Positions 1-33,521 of a stretch of 64,000 nucleotides of DNA are shown here, piece after piece; within the stretch, counting starts at the first letter, position 1; every line of letters begins with the position of its first letter. The translations under genes were made by a program, and so were the position numbers. The notes below the pieces were generated by a model. It made no database searches, had not been told where the DNA came from, and saw only the letters and a list, made by a program, of their open reading frames with translations. Location: the NCBI RefSeq assembly GCF_054482525.1, contig NZ_CM137006.1. One strand, given 5' to 3'.

Positions 1-808
1 CCTGTCGCTCGACAATGTAGCGGCGAAAGCAGGTTATTCCAAGTGGCACTTACAGAGAATGTTTAAAGATGTCACTGGCCATGCTATTGGCGCGTATATT
101 CGTGCTCGTCGTTTGTCGAAATCGGCGGTCGCACTACGCCTGACTGCGCGTCCGATTCTGGACATCGCGCTGCAATACCGCTTCGACTCTCAACAGACAT
201 TTACCCGCGCATTCAAGAAGCAGTTTGCCCAGACTCCTGCACTTTACCGCCGTTCTCCTGAATGGAGCGCCTTTGGTATTCGCCCGCCGCTACGTCTGGG
301 TGAATTCACTATGCCAGAGCACAAATTTGTCACCCTGGAAGATACGCCGCTGATTGGTGTTACCCAGAGCTACTCCTGTTCGCTGGAGCAAATCTCTGAT
401 TTCCGCCATGAAATGCGTTATCAGTTCTGGCACGATTTTCTCGGCAACGCGCCGACCATTCCGCCGGTGCTCTACGGCCTGAATGAAACGCGTCCGAGTC
501 AGGATAAAGACGACGAACAAGAAGTATTCTATACCACCGCGTTAGCCCAGGATCAGGCAGATGGCTATGTACTGACGGGGCATCCGGTGATGCTGCAGGG
601 CGGCGAATATGTGATGTTTACCTATGAAGGTCTGGGAACCGGCGTGCAGGAGTTTATCCTGACGGTATACGGAACGTGCATGCCAATGCTCAACCTGACG
701 CGCCGTAAAGGTCAGGATATTGAGCGATACTACCCGGCAGAAGATGCCAAAGCGGGAGATCGCCCAATTAATCTGCGCTGTGAACTACTGATTCCGATCC
801 GTCGTTAA
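1..808 (+). CDS. rob: Rob, AraC/XylS-family transcriptional regulator; 5' end cut by window edge (frame starts at base 2)
   Basis: ORF 59..808 and in-frame upstream codons translate to the Rob C-terminal region (...WHLQRMFKDVTGHAIGAYIRARRL...LRCELLIPIRR). Confidence 0.9.
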   Translation, partial: LSLDNVAAKAGYSKWHLQRMFKDVTGHAIGAYIRARRLSKSAVALRLTARPILDIALQYRFDSQQTFTRAFKKQFAQTPALYRRSPEWSAFGIRPPLRLGEFTMPEHKFVTLEDTPLIGVTQSYSCSLEQISDFRHEMRYQFWHDFLGNAPTIPPVLYGLNETRPSQDKDDEQEVFYTTALAQDQADGYVLTGHPVMLQGGEYVMFTYEGLGTGVQEFILTVYGTCMPMLNLTRRKGQDIERYYPAEDAKAGDRPINLRCELLIPIRR

Positions 809-1452
809 CGCTGCAGCTCATCTAATGCAGGGGCGTCCAGATGCGAGATGTCCCCTGCGGTTTCAACGACCCAGCCAGACGCCAGCCACAGGCTTTCCTG
901 ATAATCCACGCGCGAAATAGAACAGTTACGCAAACGTAAGCGACGCTCTGCCCATGCTGGTAATCCGAGAATCGTACTCACCAGGCATCCCAGTGCAATA
1001 CCATGGCTCACCAGCAGCGGTCGGCTTCCCTGCGGTAAGTCCCGGCAAGATTCCAGTGCCGCATTGACGCGATCGCTGAGCTCCTGCATTGACTCGCCTT
1101 CAGGAATACGCCCGTCAACGGTGCCATTGACCAGCTGCCGACGCCAGTTCTCTTCTTCTTCGGTCAGAGAATCGATATGTCTTTTTTCCAGCACACCCAT
1201 GTTTAATTCACGCAGGCGAGAATCAAAGATGATGTCACAGCCGCAGGCCTGGGCGATGATTTCCGCCGTACGCCGGGTGCGCCCTAAATCGCTACTGATG
1301 ATATGCGTAATGCCAAGCTCTTTGGCACGGGTTGCCACCTGCATCGCCTGTTGCTCACCTTTGGCTGTCAGCGGGCTGTCAGACTGGCCCTGAATACGTC
1401 GCTCGGCGTTCCACTGCGTTTCACCGTGGCGGACTAGGTATACCTGTAACAT
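805..1452 (-). CDS. gpmB: probable phosphoglycerate mutase GpmB (histidine phosphatase family)
   Basis: 215 aa ORF, MLQVYLVRHGETQWN... RHG phosphatase motif; convergent with rob, stop codons overlap. Confidence 0.9.
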   Translation of the reverse strand: MLQVYLVRHGETQWNAERRIQGQSDSPLTAKGEQQAMQVATRAKELGITHIISSDLGRTRRTAEIIAQACGCDIIFDSRLRELNMGVLEKRHIDSLTEEEENWRRQLVNGTVDGRIPEGESMQELSDRVNAALESCRDLPQGSRPLLVSHGIALGCLVSTILGLPAWAERRLRLRNCSISRVDYQESLWLASGWVVETAGDISHLDAPALDELQR

Positions 1453-1491
1453 GCTTTTTTTCCGTATACTGCTGTAACGTTAATTTTCTGA

Positions 1492-2354
<863 letters not shown>

Positions 2355-2386
2355 TTAGCGGGGGAAGCAAAATGCCTCCCCCGGTT

Positions 2387-2404
2387 GTACTCGCTAAAGA
2401 GTAC
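2387..2404. promoter_or_regulatory. TrpR operator in trpR promoter (GTACTC-N6-GAGTAC palindrome), autoregulation site; coordinates approximate
   Basis: palindrome GTACTCGCTAAAGAGTAC about 50 bp upstream of trpR start codon; matches known Trp-box half sites. Confidence 0.6.
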
Positions 2405-2428
2405 GATAGCATATCATAAACGTGCGGA

Positions 2429-4366
2429 TCAGTAACGACGTCCCCATTCCGTGGCGCTCATCAATGTCGGTTTATCCCCCATGAAATAGCGGTAGTAAGC
2501 GTCATAAGCCAGCACGTTCTTCACATAACCGCGCGTCTCGGAAAACGGAATACTCTCGACGAATGCCACTGCGTCGATACGCCCGGCGCTATTGCCAAGC
2601 CAGGTTCGCACCCGCCCTGGTCCGGCGTTATAAGCTGCTGAGGAGAAAATACGGTTATTACCAAACTGCTGATAAACATATTGCAGGTAACTGGTGCCAA
2701 TGTTGATGTTCGTTTCCGGATCCAGCAATTGTCCTGGGCTGCTATAACCAGGAATAGAGAACATCTTCACCGTATGGGTCGCCGTGCCCGGCATAATCTG
2801 CATCAGGCCGCTGGCCCCTACCGGTGATTTCACTTTCGGATTCCAGGCGCTCTCCTGACGGGCAATCGCCATCGCATAGCTTTGCGGGATCTCCTTCCCA
2901 CTGGTGTAACGTTTGAAAAGATCGTTGTAAGCCAGCGGGAATCGCTCTTCCAGATGATCCCATAGCTTCCCGGCGATCGTTGCCTGAACGCTAAGATCCC
3001 ACCATTGGTTATTGAAAGCATACCGAGCAAGTTGAGCCTGCTCTGTTTTTGACTTGCTCTTCACCAGATTGGCCCACTCGCTACGCGCGGTATTATCGAG
3101 ATTCCAGTACATCAACTCGCGCACGCGCGCCATCTCCGGCCCCTGAGTCAGGGCGCTGTCAACATTCTGCGGCGCTTTATCAATCTTCAGCTCGTACTCT
3201 TCACCGATGCGTTGTGCAGCAACCATCGGGTAGAAACCTCGCTGTTGCATGAGTTGATGCAAAATCTCTTTTGCTTCAGCTTCACGTCCGCGTTCAAGCA
3301 GTAAATCCGCCTGCCAGTAACGCCATTCATCTTTCTCTTTCGCCTCCATCGGCAGACGCGCCAGCCAGGTATTCAGGCCGCGACGATCGCCGGTGCCAAG
3401 CGCCATTCGCACACGGCGTTCAATAAGCGAAGTAGATTGCGAACGCATAATGGCGTCATCACGCCATTTCGCCTGTTCGTCGGTGACATCGTTGCCCATC
3501 AAACGCCAGGCGATGATATCGCGCAGCTCCTGAATCTGATCTTCATTAAGCTGCTGCGCCTGGGCAAGCGACGGGATCATCAGCCGTGCATTTTCAGCAT
3601 CCTGCCGCGCCACACTGGCAAACGCCACCGCCGCCATTTGACGGGTAAAATCGGTCGCTCCGGTTGTACGCGCGAAGGTCAGTACCGTATTAGGGTTGTT
3701 CGCCAGTGAAATGATTGCCGAGGCGATAGTCTGGTAATCGGCAGGCATCTGCCCTGCCAGCACTGTTACCAGGCCAGTGTTACCCGCTTTCATCGCCAGA
3801 CGGATACGCTCTAAATACGCCAGCGGATCTTGTTTACCTGACGCACGCCAGACGCTAAATAACTTGTCACAGGCGTTAGGCTGGCTCTTGCCGGTTAGCC
3901 ACAGCTCTTTCGCCCCTTGCCAGGCTTCTTCACTCTGCCCGGTATTCCATTTCGCATAGTAGTAATTACATTGCGCTTCGGTAGTTCCGGGCTTTTCCGG
4001 GCTAAAGGCTAACAAGCCACGCCAGTCTTCACGCCGCGCCAGTTCATTGACGAAACGAGATTGGAGCGTGCGAGCGGGAGGAAGCGTGGGGTTAGCGCGA
4101 ACAAAGTTAGTGACCGTCACCGCCGGTTGATTCATCAGGTCATCGGTGATCTGACGGTATTCCAGGTAGGGATAAAGCGGATAATCCTTCAGTCCAGGCA
4201 TCATTTGTTCGACCACATCCATTTGTCGATTATCCCAGGCCTGCTTGATTTGGGCGTAGCGGCTACGCTGCTCATCCAGTGAGTCGGCTCGCGCCACGCT
4301 GCTGACCGTCAGCAGACAGACACCGGCAGCCAACAGCCGCCAGGTAACGTGTTTGGCTTTTTCCAC
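2429..4366 (-). CDS. slt: soluble lytic murein transglycosylase Slt70 (GTG start inferred; ORF extends to 4396)
   Basis: 655 aa ORF; signal peptide VTWRLLAAGVCLLTVSSVARA, C-terminal GH23 lysozyme-like domain (...ESAWNPKVKSPVGASGLMQIMPGTA...). Confidence 0.9.
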   Translation of the reverse strand: MEKAKHVTWRLLAAGVCLLTVSSVARADSLDEQRSRYAQIKQAWDNRQMDVVEQMMPGLKDYPLYPYLEYRQITDDLMNQPAVTVTNFVRANPTLPPARTLQSRFVNELARREDWRGLLAFSPEKPGTTEAQCNYYYAKWNTGQSEEAWQGAKELWLTGKSQPNACDKLFSVWRASGKQDPLAYLERIRLAMKAGNTGLVTVLAGQMPADYQTIASAIISLANNPNTVLTFARTTGATDFTRQMAAVAFASVARQDAENARLMIPSLAQAQQLNEDQIQELRDIIAWRLMGNDVTDEQAKWRDDAIMRSQSTSLIERRVRMALGTGDRRGLNTWLARLPMEAKEKDEWRYWQADLLLERGREAEAKEILHQLMQQRGFYPMVAAQRIGEEYELKIDKAPQNVDSALTQGPEMARVRELMYWNLDNTARSEWANLVKSKSKTEQAQLARYAFNNQWWDLSVQATIAGKLWDHLEERFPLAYNDLFKRYTSGKEIPQSYAMAIARQESAWNPKVKSPVGASGLMQIMPGTATHTVKMFSIPGYSSPGQLLDPETNINIGTSYLQYVYQQFGNNRIFSSAAYNAGPGRVRTWLGNSAGRIDAVAFVESIPFSETRGYVKNVLAYDAYYRYFMGDKPTLMSATEWGRRY

Positions 4367-4495
4367 AAGCGCATCCTCTAAGTGTAAATACATCAATGCA
4401 GCGTCATGCCGCGTAATAGATTTATGCTAACCAGTCATTGCCGTTTACGCCACGTTACGGACACTTTTTTACTTTTATACTCTAAATAATTCGAG

Positions 4496-4600
4496 TTGCA
4501 GGAAGGCGATAAGTGAGTGAGTCCCCAGGAGCTTACAGAAGTAAGTGACTGGGGTGAGCGAGCGTAAGCGCAGCACATGCAACTTGAAGTATGACGAGTA
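4496..4600 (+). repeat. copy A of a ~100-nt structured repeat in the ettA 5' leader (second copy at ~59184..59288)
   Basis: ttgcaggaaggcgataagtgagtgagtccccaggagcttacagaagtaagtgactggggtgagcgagcg... about 85% identical to the sequence upstream of btsT; nested hairpin CCCCAG/CTGGGG with CTTAC/GTAAG. Confidence 0.6.
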
Positions 4601-4701
4601 TACTGCGAGGGTGATCGACCGGCTGGGATTAGATAAGGAAACAGGCTACACTTCGCCTTTGAAAACTCATCATCACGATAAACATAGAGGCGAAGTCCAA
4701 C

Positions 4702-6369
4702 GTGGCTCAATTCGTTTATACCATGCATCGTGTCGGCAAAGTTGTTCCGCCGAAACGTCATATTTTGAAAAACATCTCTCTGAGTTTCTTCCCTGGGGCA
4801 AAAATTGGTGTCCTGGGTCTGAACGGCGCGGGTAAGTCCACCCTGCTGCGCATTATGGCGGGCATTGATAAAGACATCGAAGGCGAAGCGCGTCCGCAAC
4901 CGGATATCAAGATTGGTTATCTGCCGCAGGAACCGCAGCTGAACCCGGAACACACCGTGCGTGAGTCCATTGAAGAAGCGGTTTCTGAAGTGGTTAACGC
5001 CCTGAAACGCCTGGATGAAGTGTATGCACTGTACGCCGATCCGGATGCCGATTTTGACAAGCTGGCCGCTGAACAAGGCCGTCTGGAAGAGATCATTCAG
5101 GCTCACGACGGTCACAACCTGAACGTTCAGCTGGAGCGTGCGGCGGATGCGCTGCGTCTGCCGGACTGGGACGCGAAAATCGCTAACCTCTCCGGTGGTG
5201 AGCGTCGTCGCGTGGCGTTGTGCCGCCTGCTGCTGGAAAAACCAGACATGCTGCTGCTCGACGAACCGACCAACCACCTGGATGCCGAATCCGTGGCCTG
5301 GCTGGAACGCTTCCTGCACGACTTCGAAGGCACCGTTGTGGCGATTACCCACGACCGTTACTTCCTTGATAACGTTGCAGGCTGGATCCTCGAACTGGAC
5401 CGCGGTGAAGGTATTCCGTGGGAAGGCAACTACTCCTCCTGGCTGGAGCAGAAAGATCAGCGTCTGGCGCAGGAAGCTTCACAAGAAGCGGCGCGTCGTA
5501 AGTCGATCGAGAAAGAGCTGGAGTGGGTACGTCAGGGGACTAAAGGCCGTCAGTCGAAAGGTAAAGCACGTCTGGCACGCTTTGAAGAGCTGAACAGCAC
5601 CGAATATCAGAAACGTAACGAAACCAACGAACTGTTTATTCCACCAGGACCGCGTCTGGGCGATAAAGTGCTGGAAGTCAGCAATCTGCGTAAATCCTAT
5701 GGCGATCGTCTGCTGATTGACTCCCTGAGCTTCTCGATCCCGAAAGGAGCGATCGTCGGGATCATCGGTCCGAACGGTGCGGGTAAATCGACCCTGTTCC
5801 GTATGATCTCCGGTCAGGAACAGCCGGACAGCGGCACCATCACTCTGGGTGAAACGGTGAAACTGGCATCGGTTGATCAGTTCCGTGACTCAATGGATAA
5901 CAGCAAAACCGTTTGGGAAGAAGTTTCCGGCGGGCTGGATATCATGAAAATCGGCAACACCGAGATGCCAAGCCGCGCCTACGTTGGCCGCTTTAACTTT
6001 AAAGGGGTTGATCAGGGTAAACGCGTTGGTGAACTCTCCGGCGGTGAGCGCGGTCGTCTGCATCTGGCGAAGCTGCTGCAAGTTGGCGGCAACATGCTGC
6101 TGCTCGACGAACCAACCAACGACCTGGATATCGAAACCCTGCGCGCGCTGGAAAACGCCCTGCTGGAGTTCCCGGGCTGCGCGATGGTTATCTCGCACGA
6201 CCGTTGGTTCCTCGACCGTATCGCCACGCACATTCTGGATTACCAGGATGAAGGTAAAGTTGAGTTCTTCGAAGGTAACTTTACCGAGTACGAAGAGTAC
6301 AAGAAACGCACGCTGGGCGCAGACGCGCTGGAGCCGAAGCGTATCAAGTACAAGCGTATTGCGAAGTAA
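4702..6369 (+). CDS. ettA: energy-dependent translational throttle protein EttA (ABC-F ATPase)
   Basis: 555 aa ORF with two ABC ATPase domains (GLNGAGKST... LSGGERRR...; GPNGAGKST... LSGGERGR...). Confidence 0.93.
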   Translation: MAQFVYTMHRVGKVVPPKRHILKNISLSFFPGAKIGVLGLNGAGKSTLLRIMAGIDKDIEGEARPQPDIKIGYLPQEPQLNPEHTVRESIEEAVSEVVNALKRLDEVYALYADPDADFDKLAAEQGRLEEIIQAHDGHNLNVQLERAADALRLPDWDAKIANLSGGERRRVALCRLLLEKPDMLLLDEPTNHLDAESVAWLERFLHDFEGTVVAITHDRYFLDNVAGWILELDRGEGIPWEGNYSSWLEQKDQRLAQEASQEAARRKSIEKELEWVRQGTKGRQSKGKARLARFEELNSTEYQKRNETNELFIPPGPRLGDKVLEVSNLRKSYGDRLLIDSLSFSIPKGAIVGIIGPNGAGKSTLFRMISGQEQPDSGTITLGETVKLASVDQFRDSMDNSKTVWEEVSGGLDIMKIGNTEMPSRAYVGRFNFKGVDQGKRVGELSGGERGRLHLAKLLQVGGNMLLLDEPTNDLDIETLRALENALLEFPGCAMVISHDRWFLDRIATHILDYQDEGKVEFFEGNFTEYEEYKKRTLGADALEPKRIKYKRIAK

Positions 6370-6399
6370 TGCATAAAATGCCGGATGCGGCGCGCCAGC

Positions 6400-6520
6400 A
6401 TCGCATCCGGTATTAGTTAAATGATTAGTCCCCGGAAAAAGGCAGAATTTTCTTTAAGCGTATTAGCTCAGATGCGGACTGACACCTCAAATCAAGCGGG
6501 AACTCATGGTTCCCGCTTAA
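6400..6520. terminator. bidirectional terminator region between convergent ettA and LysR-family gene (REP-like GC hairpin plus second hairpin); approximate
   Basis: gccggatgcggcgcgccagcatcgcatccggt hairpin after ettA stop; aagcgggaactcatggttcccgctt hairpin after LysR gene stop. Confidence 0.5.
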
Positions 6521-6524
6521 CGTT

Positions 6525-7412
6525 TTATTCACCGCGCAAAATCTGGCGGAAATGGGAAACCAGCGGACGTTGGTTGGCTTTATGCCAGGCTGCCCATAAT
6601 TGCGTTGAATAATTCATCCACGGCAATTCACGTAATACCACCCCTTCCGGCGCATTATGACGCAGACTATGTTGAATTAAGGCCAGACCTAATCCCGCAG
6701 CGACCAGACCTAAGGCCGTGAGTGGTTCACCCGCTTCCAGGCGAATATCAGGATTAAACCCGGCGTTAACACAGGCGGCGACAAAATGATCGCGAGAATG
6801 CGCATCGTCGTTATGAATCACCGCAATCCACTGCTCATCGCCAAGTTGTGACGCGACAAGGTTTTCCTCCTGCGCCAGAGGATGATTTTGCGGTAAGGCC
6901 AACAACATTCGATCATCCAGAACCTGAATATATTCCAGATCCTGCTCGCTGTCGGTGGGCGGCGTATCGACCAGAGAAAAATCGAGACTGCGCTGGCGCA
7001 GGCCTTCAATCTGGGTCGCCGGTGGTTGGCTGTAAAGTGCGATATGCACATTCGGACGCGATACACGTAACGTACGTAGCGCCGTAGAAAGCACACCGGA
7101 ATGCATGGCGTTTTCGATATAGCCAATACACAAGCCACCATCTTCCCCCCGTCCCAGGCGTTTGCCTAACGACTCCAGGCGGTTGGCGTGTGTCAGCAAC
7201 GAACGTGTTTCGGCAAGGAATGTCTGTCCATCAGCGGTCAGGCGAATGCGCTGCTGATTACGCTCAAACAGCGTCAGCCCCAGCCGTTCTTCCAGTTGTG
7301 CAATCTGGCGGCTCAGCGGTGATTGCGAGATATGTAATCGCTCGGCTGCGCGTCCCACGTGCTCTTCTTCTGCGACCACCACGAAGTACTTCAGTTGGCG
7401 TAAATCAATCAT
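6525..7412 (-). CDS. LysR-family transcriptional regulator (LTTR), divergent from AKR-SDR-SRPBCC operon
   Basis: ORF 6525..7505; LTTR HTH start MIDLRQLKYFVVVAEEEHVGRAAERLHISQSPLSRQIAQLEERLG at codon 32; ATG with GAGG RBS. Confidence 0.8.
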   Translation of the reverse strand: MIDLRQLKYFVVVAEEEHVGRAAERLHISQSPLSRQIAQLEERLGLTLFERNQQRIRLTADGQTFLAETRSLLTHANRLESLGKRLGRGEDGGLCIGYIENAMHSGVLSTALRTLRVSRPNVHIALYSQPPATQIEGLRQRSLDFSLVDTPPTDSEQDLEYIQVLDDRMLLALPQNHPLAQEENLVASQLGDEQWIAVIHNDDAHSRDHFVAACVNAGFNPDIRLEAGEPLTALGLVAAGLGLALIQHSLRHNAPEGVVLRELPWMNYSTQLWAAWHKANQRPLVSHFRQILRGE

Positions 7413-31692: not shown

Positions 31693-32724
31693 ATGTCTGC
31701 ATTTACCCCGGCAAGTGAAGTCTTGCTGCGTCACAGTGATGATTTCGAACAAAGCCGTATTCTTTTTGCCGGAGACTTACAGGATGACCTGCCCGCGCGT
31801 TTAGATACCGCGGTCAGCCGTGCTCATACCCAGCAATTCCACCACTGGCAGGTGTTAAGCCGCCAGATGGGGGATAACGCCCGTTTTAGCCTGGTCGCTA
31901 CGGCGGATGACGTCGCAGATTGCAATACGCTGATTTACTACTGGCCGAAGAACAAACCGGAAGCCCAGTTCCAGTTGATGAATTTACTTTCTCTGCTGCC
32001 GGTGGGCACTGATATTTTTGTCGTTGGCGAGAACCGCAGCGGCGTGCGCAGCGCAGAACAGATGCTGGCAGATTATGCGCCGTTGAATAAAGTCGACAGC
32101 GCCCGTCGCTGTGGCCTCTATTTTGGTCGTCTGGAAAAGCAGCCGGTATTTGATGCCGATAAATTCTGGGGCGAATATAACGTGGATGGCCTGACGGTCA
32201 AAACGCTGCCGGGCGTGTTTAGCCGCGACGGTCTGGATGTCGGTAGCCAGTTACTGCTCTCGACGTTAACTCCGCACACGAAAGGTAAAGTGCTGGATGT
32301 CGGCTGTGGCGCGGGCGTGCTTTCTGTTGCCTTTGCGCGCCATTCACCGAAAATTCGTCTCACTCTGTGCGATGTCTCTGCGCCAGCGGTAGAAGCCAGC
32401 CGCGCAACACTTGCGGCCAACGGTGTTGAAGGTGAAGTCTTTGCCAGTAACGTCTTTTCCGAGGTGAAAGGTCGTTTTGATATGATCATCTCCAACCCGC
32501 CGTTCCACGATGGGATGCAAACCAGCCTCGATGCGGCGCAAACGCTGATTCGCGGCGCGGTGCGTCATCTTAATAGCGGCGGCGAGCTGCGAATTGTAGC
32601 GAACGCCTTCCTGCCTTATCCGGACGTGCTGGATGAGACATTTGGCTTCCATGAAGTTATCGCACAAACCGGGCGCTTCAAGGTGTATCGCGCCATTATG
32701 ACCCGCCAGGCGAAGAAAGGTTGA
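31693..32724 (+). CDS. rsmC: 16S rRNA (guanine1207-N2)-methyltransferase RsmC
   Basis: 343 aa ORF; SAM-binding motif [12 protein letters not shown] and NPPFH catalytic motif. Confidence 0.9.
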
Positions 32725-32854: not shown

Positions 32855-32882
32855 TTGACGAAAAGCTGAAAACCACTAGAAT
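32855..32882 (+). promoter_or_regulatory. sigma70 promoter of the tRNA-Leu operon (TTGACG -35, TAGAAT -10, GC-rich discriminator); approximate
   Basis: ttgacg-N16-tagaat followed by gcgcctcc ~40 bp upstream of first tRNA. Confidence 0.6.
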
Positions 32883-32923
32883 GCGCCTCCGTGGTAGCAA
32901 TTCTTTTTAAGAATTGATGGTAT

Positions 32924-33010
32924 GCGAAGGTGGCGGAATTGGTAGACGCGCTAGCTTCAGGTGTTAGTGTCCTTACGGACGTGGGGGTTCAAGTCCCCCC
33001 CCTCGCACCA
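32924..33010 (+). tRNA. leuQ: tRNA-Leu (anticodon CAG), 87 nt incl. CCA
   Basis: gcgaaggtggcggaattggtagacgcgctagcttcaggtgttagtgtccttacggacgtgggggttcaagtcccccccctcgcacca; D-arm, CAG anticodon loop (cttCAGgt), long variable arm, T-arm GGTTCAAGTCC. Confidence 0.93.
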
Positions 33011-33038
33011 AAAACCACGTTGATATTGCTCGCACTGG

Positions 33039-33125
33039 GCGAAGGTGGCGGAATTGGTAGACGCGCTAGCTTCAGGTGTTAGTGTTCTTACGGACGTGGG
33101 GGTTCAAGTCCCCCCCCTCGCACCA
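33039..33125 (+). tRNA. leuP: tRNA-Leu (CAG), 87 nt; differs from flanking copies by one base in the variable arm (gtgtTctt vs gtgtCctt)
   Basis: second tandem copy after a 28-nt spacer. Confidence 0.93.
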
Positions 33126-33159
33126 AACGAGGCGATATCAAAAAAAGTAAGATGACTGT

Positions 33160-33246
33160 GCGAAGGTGGCGGAATTGGTAGACGCGCTAGCTTCAGGTGT
33201 TAGTGTCCTTACGGACGTGGGGGTTCAAGTCCCCCCCCTCGCACCA
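33160..33246 (+). tRNA. leuV: tRNA-Leu (CAG), 87 nt
   Basis: third tandem copy after a 34-nt spacer; identical to first copy. Confidence 0.93.
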
Positions 33247-33284: not shown

Positions 33285-33521
33285 TCATCCCTGCTTCAAA
33301 TTCATTATCATCAGCATGATGCCAGCAATAAGCGCCAGGCACGATGGCAGCAAAACGTAATGCCGCAACTGTTTGTGATACAGCATCACCGGCGTCAATA
33401 CTAATCCCATCAGAATGATAATCCGCCATTGATCCGGCGATAAATCCGCATACATCAGCCCTGCAATCAGCAATCCCGGCAGCAACACTCCCCAGCCACT
33501 GCCCAGCGTACGTTGCAACAT
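33285..33521 (-). CDS. yjjZ: small inner-membrane protein YjjZ
   Basis: ORF 33285..33632; MLQRTLGSGWGVLLPGLLIAGLMYADLSPDQWRIIILMGLVLTPVMLYHKQ from codon 38. Confidence 0.65.
   Translation of the reverse strand: MLQRTLGSGWGVLLPGLLIAGLMYADLSPDQWRIIILMGLVLTPVMLYHKQLRHYVLLPSCLALIAGIMLMIMNLKQG

Follow-up and report, generated by a model that had tools for sequence, protein, structure and literature searches.

Why should the middle one of three adjacent and otherwise identical tRNA genes carry a base of its own? The stretch of DNA analyzed here, 64,000 nucleotides in length and referred to below as the window, contains three tandem tRNA-Leu(CAG) genes, and the second has T at a position of the variable arm where the first and third have C. 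The T, at window position 33086, most likely represents the usual leuP allele, retained from long ago as a near-neutral difference between isodecoders, with occasional exchange of sequence among the repeats. In itself this base matters little: the allele is documented, and the synthetase does not read the arm in which it lies. The more interesting feature of the locus is a predicted helix between the two spacers of the array, which was found through looking at T33086.

The leuQ-leuP-leuV operon and its variable base

ARAGORN detected exactly three tRNA genes in the whole 64-kb window, all of them tRNA-Leu(CAG) genes on the + strand, and each scores 48.5 bits against the Rfam tRNA model RF00005, for which the gathering score is 29. 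The first, leuQ (32924 to 33010), and the second, leuP (33039 to 33125), are identical to the genes of the same names in Escherichia coli K-12 MG1655, and the third, leuV (33160 to 33246), is supported by ARAGORN, Rfam, and the alignment of the three copies. They are separated by a 28-nt spacer (spacer 1, 33011 to 33038) and a 34-nt spacer (spacer 2, 33126 to 33159). Three 87-nt copies that are 99 to 100% identical do not resemble each other by chance. In a three-way alignment, 86 of 87 columns are invariant, and the sole difference falls at gene position 48, which is 33086 in leuP; its context is GTGTTAGTGT[C/T]CTTACGG, with C in leuQ and leuV and T in leuP. All three genes are of the bacterial class II tRNA-Leu type, with the anticodon CAG at position 35 within the 7-nt loop TTCAGGT, and all end in ...TCGCACCA, so that discriminator A73 and an encoded CCA are present. 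The earlier note on this DNA had described a leuQPV triplet of tRNA-Leu(CAG) genes whose middle copy, at 33039 to 33125, differs from two identical neighbors by one variable-arm substitution to T. ARAGORN and the MG1655 match confirm this description with its exact coordinates, and the alignment places the substitution at a stem position, 48; we also consider it fair that the note rated the difference a minor point.

With rsmC on one side and yjjZ on the other, the locus is the leuQ-leuP-leuV operon of E. coli. Its upstream neighbor on the + strand, a 343-amino-acid open reading frame at 31693 to 32724, is annotated in matching E. coli genomes as rsmC, the gene for the 16S rRNA m2G1207 methyltransferase. 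On the − strand downstream lies yjjZ (33285 to 33521), which encodes a DUF1435 protein, and whose annotation agrees with a 78-amino-acid translation that matches yjjZ of other loci. A consensus scan located a promoter-like element, TTGACG-16 nt-TAGAAT, followed by the GC-rich stretch GCGCCTCC, at 32855 to 32882 on the + strand; this is a pattern match, with 10 of 12 consensus positions, which from its position and from the literature on the tRNA-Leu1 promoter we presume to be the promoter of leuQPV. When the 801-nt region around the array was compared with 5,426 complete E. coli genomes, matches covering at least 80% of its length were found in 5,379 of them, the annotation beneath the matches reads rsmC, three tRNA-Leu genes, and yjjZ, and the best 801-bp matches are in strains PCN033, SCU-102, and 19KM1776.

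In K-12 MG1655 the three genes are annotated as leuQ, leuP, and leuV, and the window shares with that genome an identical stretch that begins ahead of the −35 hexamer, ends 25 nt beyond leuV, and takes in the C/T/C pattern at position 48 and the spacers of 28 and 34 nt; only a few flanking bases differ, none of them within the operon. The fourth Leu(CAG) gene of K-12, leuT in the argX-hisR-leuT-proM operon, is of the C form. The genes leuQPV are cotranscribed, and it is RNase P, rather than RNase E, that their transcript requires for its initial processing (PMC2190699, PMC7049720). The base difference of leuP is already known and is often ignored. A one-base difference in the variable loop has been recorded (PMC12472396, bioRxiv 10.1101/2020.02.21.958157), and the second of these sources, a tRNA-sequencing preprint, sets (leuP) apart from (leuQ leuT leuV) among its groups of identical copies. 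The four Leu(CAG) genes are treated as identical in a figure legend of PMC2190699 and in PMC8510543.

The variable region of leuP spans 15 nt and is built as a stem of G46-C57, U47-A56, the pair 48:55, and C49-G54, closed by the loop UUAC. T48 (33086) has G55 (33093) as its partner, and the C48-G55 pair of the other copies is thereby replaced by a U48·G55 wobble within the stem; in standard tRNA numbering we take this pair to be e12:e22. The variable-arm hairpin is predicted at −5.2 kcal/mol for the C form and −2.3 kcal/mol for the U form, with the stem forming in both, and the whole cloverleaf at −30.0 and −27.1 kcal/mol, respectively. In the middle gene of Yersinia aldovae the pair is U48-A55, a full compensation, which indicates that the pairing itself is the conserved feature. 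The swap to U·G would weaken the arm somewhat without preventing it from forming, and it leaves the acceptor end, the anticodon, and the elbow as they are. The predicted cost of ~2.9 kcal/mol might have consequences for turnover or when the temperature is high. We know of no functional difference between the C48 and U48 forms.

Two isodecoders would be made, the C form from leuQ, leuV, and leuT and the U form from leuP, and both are expected to be charged by leucyl-tRNA synthetase (LeuRS) and used alike. According to a review, leucine identity in E. coli does not depend critically on the long variable arm, whose sequence and folding are uncorrelated with leucylation, and variants lacking the arm stay active (PMC9976931). 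From this we infer that the C and U forms work alike, and, given the identity with K-12 leuP, the leuP product is expected to be charged with leucine and to read CUG. The isodecoders valV and valW, called “nearly identical” in PMC2190699, are likewise paralogs of one operon with very few differences outside the anticodon; compared with such cases, leuP shows a single structure-preserving change, from C-G to U·G, in an arm that is unused for identity. U48 is a natural tag by which reads or probes can separate the product of leuP from the products of the other three genes of the most abundant leucine tRNA.

Frequency, exchange, and age of the middle-gene T

C/T/C is the norm of the species E. 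coli. Counts were made by megablast against the 5,426 complete genomes (5,429 matching records). A 91-nt T-form query, composed of the last 20 nt of spacer 1 and the first 71 nt of leuP, is matched exactly in 4,532 of the 5,429 records (~83%). The C-form version of this query is matched exactly in 564 records, a count inflated by genomes with a single gene in the array: the bare tRNA reached 80% coverage, and so the 425 one-gene genomes also scored as exact. The number of three-gene E. coli arrays with C in the middle is therefore bracketed only, between ~139 and 450. C/C/C was read directly in strains EH09-18-41 and 25-06685; for ETEC H10407 and several O55:H7 strains, C in leuP follows from exact matches to the C-form query.

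These counts bear on two readings under which the T would be a peculiarity of this one genome. That it is a sequencing or assembly error in the window, which the earlier note had named as the finding that would overturn its observation, has a negligible probability. Repeats are error-prone, and a reassembly of MG1655 (CP025268) has a C/C/C array with an 88-nt third gene, in which an extra C in the C8 run looks like an artifact; errors of that kind, however, would tend to homogenize the repeats and would hardly create the canonical leuP base, and at 33086 the window agrees with thousands of independent assemblies. As the K-12 reference shares this base with 4,532 records, error can be set aside. 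It is also highly improbable, if a shade less so, that the T arose as a recent mutation or polymorphism of this strain or lineage. The ~17% of E. coli records without an exact T-form match do attest to intraspecific variation of the site and of the array. Against a recent origin, the T is published for leuP, is present in MG1655 and in the 4,532 records, and occupies the same slot in Escherichia albertii, Salmonella, Citrobacter, and Klebsiella oxytoca. The suggestion of a strain polymorphism, made in the earlier note, is contradicted by the occurrence of the entire C/T/C pattern in MG1655, in ~83% of E. coli, and in E. albertii, Salmonella enterica, Citrobacter, and K. oxytoca.

The note's other suggestion, a history of gene conversion, is supported in a reversed sense: the T of this window looks like an old base that escaped homogenization rather than a recent change, and conversion and unequal recombination are visible in a minority of arrays. 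The three 87-bp repeats and leuT would occasionally exchange sequence by gene conversion and unequal recombination, and such exchange would erase the T (C/C/C), spread it (T/T/C, C/T/T), or delete genes (two- and one-gene arrays). In E. coli, 60 records have T48 in the first slot of the array, that of leuQ, 62 have it in that of leuV, and 4 have it in leuT. Strain FHI_NMBU_03 has T/T/C and Nissle 1917 has C/T/T, both from sequences read directly. An array of one gene, with the 5′ flank of leuQ, a tRNA, and the 3′ flank of leuV, is present in the 425 E. coli genomes mentioned above, and two-gene arrays are present in 36 (22 with a leuQ × leuP junction and 14 with a leuP × leuV junction). Direct reading gave one gene in O157:H7 Z1723 and in strain 118 and two genes in O157:H7 TR01.

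Most O157:H7-type genomes have one gene in the array and have two leuT genes instead. Their third Leu(CAG) site was considered as a stray fragment of the array, a possibility that was rejected, as leuT is duplicated in tandem there. The one-gene genomes also displayed an apparent excess of matches to the spacer 2 query, which by our own reckoning is attributable to marginal BLAST extension into the leuT flank. The copy number of the major leucine tRNA gene thus varies in E. coli, with arrays of one to three genes, and position 48 makes it possible to recognize conversion, deletion, and misassembly of the repeats in genome data.

Other genera were scanned with a T-form 22-mer, using one genome per species, which returned at least 120 stretches; the scan is conditioned on T, and the proportions of the patterns are therefore biased. 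All the matches listed belong to Enterobacterales or to unclassified proteobacterial bins. The rsmC-array-yjjZ synteny occurs in Enterobacteriaceae, Erwiniaceae, Yersiniaceae, Pectobacteriaceae, Hafniaceae, and Morganellaceae. Among the matches listed, and with the tally confined to arrays at least 150 nt from the end of a locus, 14 arrays are C/T/C, 10 are C/T/T, 6 are T/T/C, and 3 are T/T/T, while T is in the third gene only in 6 and in the first gene only in 1; the middle gene is thus the usual carrier of the T among these matches. C/T/C together with clearly homologous spacers was found in E. albertii, S. enterica subsp. arizonae, four Citrobacter species, K. oxytoca, Phytobacter, Pseudocitrobacter, and others. 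Serratia has C/T/C too, with spacers that are more diverged. In the same T-conditioned scan, leuT carries T in at least 41 loci of many genera, among them Escherichia whittamii, Citrobacter, K. oxytoca, Enterobacter cloacae, Pantoea, Serratia, Pectobacterium, Morganella, and Xenorhabdus. Across Enterobacterales the U form is widespread, and there are also genomes with the U form only, for example Klebsiella sp. BIGb0407 and Rouxiella aceris.

Paralogs within a genome could be compared in 64 of the 70 genomes with at least two genes, those whose paralogs are of equal length. Among the matches listed, position 48 differs between paralogs in 51 of these 64 genomes, which represent six families, whereas every other site does so in at most 5; positions 5, 61, 75, 77, and 79 distinguish genera, and paralogs differ there in only 2 to 4 genomes each. 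In their shared genus-specific substitutions, their clean recombinant junctions, and the movement of T between slots, the leuQPV genes resemble tandem families under concerted evolution, and they differ from such families in that one site escapes homogenization in most of the genomes sampled.

A second sample was drawn through homologues of RsmC and was blind to the state of the tRNA genes. It contains C/T/C in two contigs of S. enterica subsp. enterica and a corresponding c/T/C array in an FGI57-like genome, whose first gene has C48 and differs elsewhere in the variable arm. A genome labeled Klebsiella pneumoniae has C/C/C, Salmonella bongori has one gene with C, and a Kluyvera species has two genes with no T. 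By parsimony, on a sample that is biased, the T of the middle gene is probably older than the split of Escherichia, Salmonella, and Citrobacter and is likely the older state. We read the C form as having spread to leuT in E. coli.

Neutral retention or selection at position 48

An old base that is still confined to one repeat in most genomes raises the question of whether selection keeps the C/U difference between neighboring repeats. We consider this unlikely in both versions that suggest themselves. In one, the isodecoders would differ in function, be it stability, modification, or use under stress. In the other, the mismatch in the middle would make adjacent repeats imperfect and so reduce deletion and conversion, which would protect a three-gene array of a highly demanded tRNA. 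The excess of within-genome differences at position 48 among the matches listed speaks in favor, since sites that distinguish genera are usually uniform within a genome, and so does the fact that C/T/C with orthologous spacers is common to several genera though other patterns arise in E. coli. The one pair of copies without any mismatch in a C/T/C array is leuQ and leuV, and it is their recombination product that predominates among the deletions, with 425 genomes compared with 36 in which neighboring genes have recombined. Arrays of the O55:H7 lineage are C/C/C, and a single gene is left in most genomes of the O157:H7 type. A thermodynamic model gives 4.8 expected pairs between copies for C/C/C and 1.2 for C/T/C. 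Mismatch repair is said, in work by Lovett and Feschenko from 1996, to stabilize diverged tandem repeats, which we count in favor of selection as well.

There are also observations that speak against selection. Pure-C arrays (the K. pneumoniae-labeled genome and O55:H7), pure-U genomes (BIGb0407 and R. aceris), and one-gene arrays (S. bongori and O157:H7) are fixed in successful lineages, and because all of these lineages thrive, the T of leuP is dispensable. C/T/T and T/T/C, each with one identical adjacent pair, are common between genera. The 425 one-gene genomes probably stem from few independent events, O157:H7 having been heavily sequenced, and the ratio of 425 to 36 is therefore not a rate. 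C and U both pair with G, which is what would be expected of a neutral two-state site, and LeuRS does not read the variable arm (PMC9976931). Balancing selection on position 48 is weakened further by the blind sample, with its C/C/C array in K. pneumoniae and its single gene in S. bongori. Still, the persistence of C/T/C across genera, despite the homogenized and collapsed arrays of E. coli, could mean that selection acts against those variants. What the sequences show directly is which locus this is, which base pair is changed, how frequent the states are in E. coli, and how they are distributed over genera. The reading that we retain is that of an ordinary leuP allele kept as a near-neutral isodecoder difference, for which we infer the equal function of both forms, the direction of the change, and near-neutrality.

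A mutational hotspot at 33086 was also considered and found no support in PMC8510543, which is weak evidence on this point. In that study of mutation accumulation under defective mismatch repair, 12 of 18 substitutions in the four genes adjoin the C8 run, and the leuP site is not mentioned (PMC8510543).

A predicted helix between the spacers that flank leuP

Spacers 1 and 2 are complementary to each other and are not repeats of each other. The sequence TTGATATTGCTCG (33020 to 33032, + strand), the 5′ arm in spacer 1, pairs with CGAGGCGATATCAA (33128 to 33141, + strand), the 3′ arm in spacer 2, and the resulting helix is part of the minimum-free-energy fold of 33006 to 33164. When the duplex was predicted for each sequence separately, it was obtained in 47 of 47 distinct three-gene arrays, with a mean of −18.6 kcal/mol, compared with −9.8 kcal/mol when spacer 2 was shuffled and −12.2 kcal/mol when the spacers came from different genera. 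The helix has 13 to 17 bp with a bulge, and it begins 3 to 7 nt before the 5′ end of the tRNA and 0 to 1 nt after the CCA. Helices that would bracket leuQ, leuV, or the whole array (leader-spacer 1, spacer 2-trailer, and leader-trailer, each against shuffles) are near background.

The two arms carry compensating changes in other genera, as in Serratia (GAUUUAUAUUGCA.CAGC with GCUGGUGAUAUAAAUC), Yersinia ruckeri (..AUGUUACA.. with ..GUGACAU..), and an Erwinia bin (AUUGCUGUG with CACAGCAAU). In a core-anchored alignment of 28 distinct sequences, changes on both sides are seen at 12 of 13 pairs, and the covariation score is 0.438, compared with 0.220 in shuffles (none of 500 reached the observed score) and at most 0.08 with slid partners; the register of this alignment was taken from predicted duplexes, and its pair counts lean towards structure. 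Independently of any alignment, spacer partners were swapped among arrays, one for each of 20 genus labels (E. coli is present twice, as “E.” and “Escherichia”), and 0 of 5,000 permutations of spacer 2 reached the native mean stability. RNAalifold, run on a plain MAFFT alignment in which the spacers were out of register, recovered only part of the helix. U·G and G·U pairs are frequent when the helix is read as the sense strand, which points to an RNA rather than a DNA element. The C/C/C array of the K. pneumoniae-labeled genome keeps the helix with compensatory changes, which argues that the helix is independent of the base at position 48.

The precursor was also modeled over 387 nt with a partition function; the calculation applies to unmodified RNA at equilibrium and is not evidence of function. 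For the native precursor, the expected number of pairs between copies is 1.2, and the acceptor stems of leuQ, leuP, and leuV form with probabilities of 0.60, 0.58, and 0.79. Complementing either arm of the helix raises the between-copy pairs to 4 to 8 and lowers the acceptor-stem probability of leuP to 0.23 or 0.00, depending on the arm, and complementing both arms brings these values to 0.2 pairs and back to a probability of 0.67. It is tempting to regard the helix as an undescribed element of the leuQPV precursor, a clamp by which the middle tRNA would fold on itself instead of pairing with the adjacent copies and the junctions would be presented to RNase P, which would make leuP a distinct unit of the operon, and we put this forward tentatively, as a possibility somewhat short of an even chance. 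Less likely is the extension of this proposal in which selection also keeps the C/U mismatch, lowering pairing or recombination between adjacent copies.

The spacer helix does not seem to have been described before, as judged from Rfam, which at a permissive threshold returned nothing in the spacers, and from the papers on the processing of this operon (PMC2190699, PMC7049720), in which it is not described. Mohanty and Kushner (PMC2190699) considered it unclear how RNase P recognizes the leuQPV transcript; if functional, the helix would bear on how this enzyme handles three identical tRNAs without prior cuts by RNase E (PMC2190699).

Stems formed by leader and trailer are familiar from RNA processing, as in the RNase III stems of rRNA operons and in some pre-tRNAs, and the spacers around leuP are likewise complementary, covary, and enclose a mature RNA. 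With 13 to 17 bp and a bulge, the helix is shorter than the classical RNase III substrates and than about two helical turns. We know of no cleavage within it, and our literature search found no report of RNase III action on leuQPV. In a tiling array study, the leuQ leuP leuV transcript was unchanged on inactivation of RNase E, and RNase III is unmentioned there (PMC3082872). As for other arrays of K-12, valUXY gives only a weak signal for pairing of its spacers, and metZWV and glyVXY, whose arrays hold three identical genes and no others, have directly repeated spacers, unlike leuQPV.

Complementary spacers around leuP

The spacers on either side of leuP, the middle gene of the leuQ-leuP-leuV array (33039-33125), are complementary to each other: 33020-33032 in the leuQ-leuP spacer can pair with 33128-33141 in the leuP-leuV spacer to form a helix of 13 bp with one bulge, which encloses the middle gene only. 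Compensatory changes maintain this pairing in all 47 distinct three-gene Enterobacterales arrays among the matches listed. In a thermodynamic model, disrupting the helix lowered the predicted correct folding of leuP, while restoring it rescued the predicted folding. Rfam contains no entry for the helix, and two papers on tRNA processing in the operon (PMC2190699, PMC7049720) do not describe it.

Other tRNA gene arrays of K-12 were compared. The spacers of metZWV and glyVXY are direct repeats, in contrast to the complementary spacers that flank leuP. Partial complementarity was found around valX in the MG1655 valU-valX-valY array (locus L134, 708-873), where the flanking spacers form a duplex of -18.1 kcal/mol, with 28 of 500 shuffles being equally good; valX may be a second instance of a bracketed middle gene.

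Copy number of tRNA-Leu(CAG) genes in E. coli

The leuQPV array, which encodes the major leucine tRNA, differs in copy number within E. coli. One-gene arrays, in which the 5' flank of leuQ is joined to the 3' flank of leuV, occur in 425 complete genomes, and two-gene arrays in 36 (reduced arrays: L003, 1501-1587; L125, 20046-20132; L131, 434-635). O157:H7-type genomes having a one-gene array contain three Leu(CAG) sites, which fits with a duplication of leuT. Such a tandem duplication is present in the argX-hisR-leuT-proM operon of E. coli O157:H7 PV15-279 (L127, 3021-3333), where the two leuT copies are separated by 139 nt containing a chimeric pseudo-tRNA. The chimera joins the 5' portion of proM to the hisR 3' end at a T-arm sequence common to both genes.

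The array of a K-12 MG1655 re-assembly (NZ_CP025268.1; L130, 404-727) has C at gene position 48 in all three genes (C/C/C rather than C/T/C), and one extra C in the C8 run brings the third gene to 88 nt. Both differences probably arose as artefacts when the repeat was assembled or polished; a laboratory variant is a possible alternative.

Features of the gene bodies and the leuQ leader

An acceptor-stem A5·C68 mismatch (32928 with 33002 in leuQ; gene positions 5 and 79) is shared by leuP and leuV and is present in E. coli and its close relatives. In other genera, position 5 is occupied by U, C, or G and position 68 by C or U, so that a standard 5-68 pair can form in many of them. The A5:C68 mismatch has been listed as a feature that only the CAG isoacceptor has, and C68 was reported to be important for L/F-transferase as part of a set that also includes C72 and A4:U69 (PMC4105747).

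The Escherichia albertii leuP (L004, 12791-12877) differs from its neighbors at two sites, T48 and a C24-to-T change in the D stem. In the Yersinia aldovae middle gene (L005), U48 pairs with A55 rather than G55, which is the fully compensated form of the 48-55 pair.

In the 5' leader, between a promoter-like site and leuQ, the palindrome CAATTC-TTTTTAA-GAATTG (32898-32916) can form a short hairpin.
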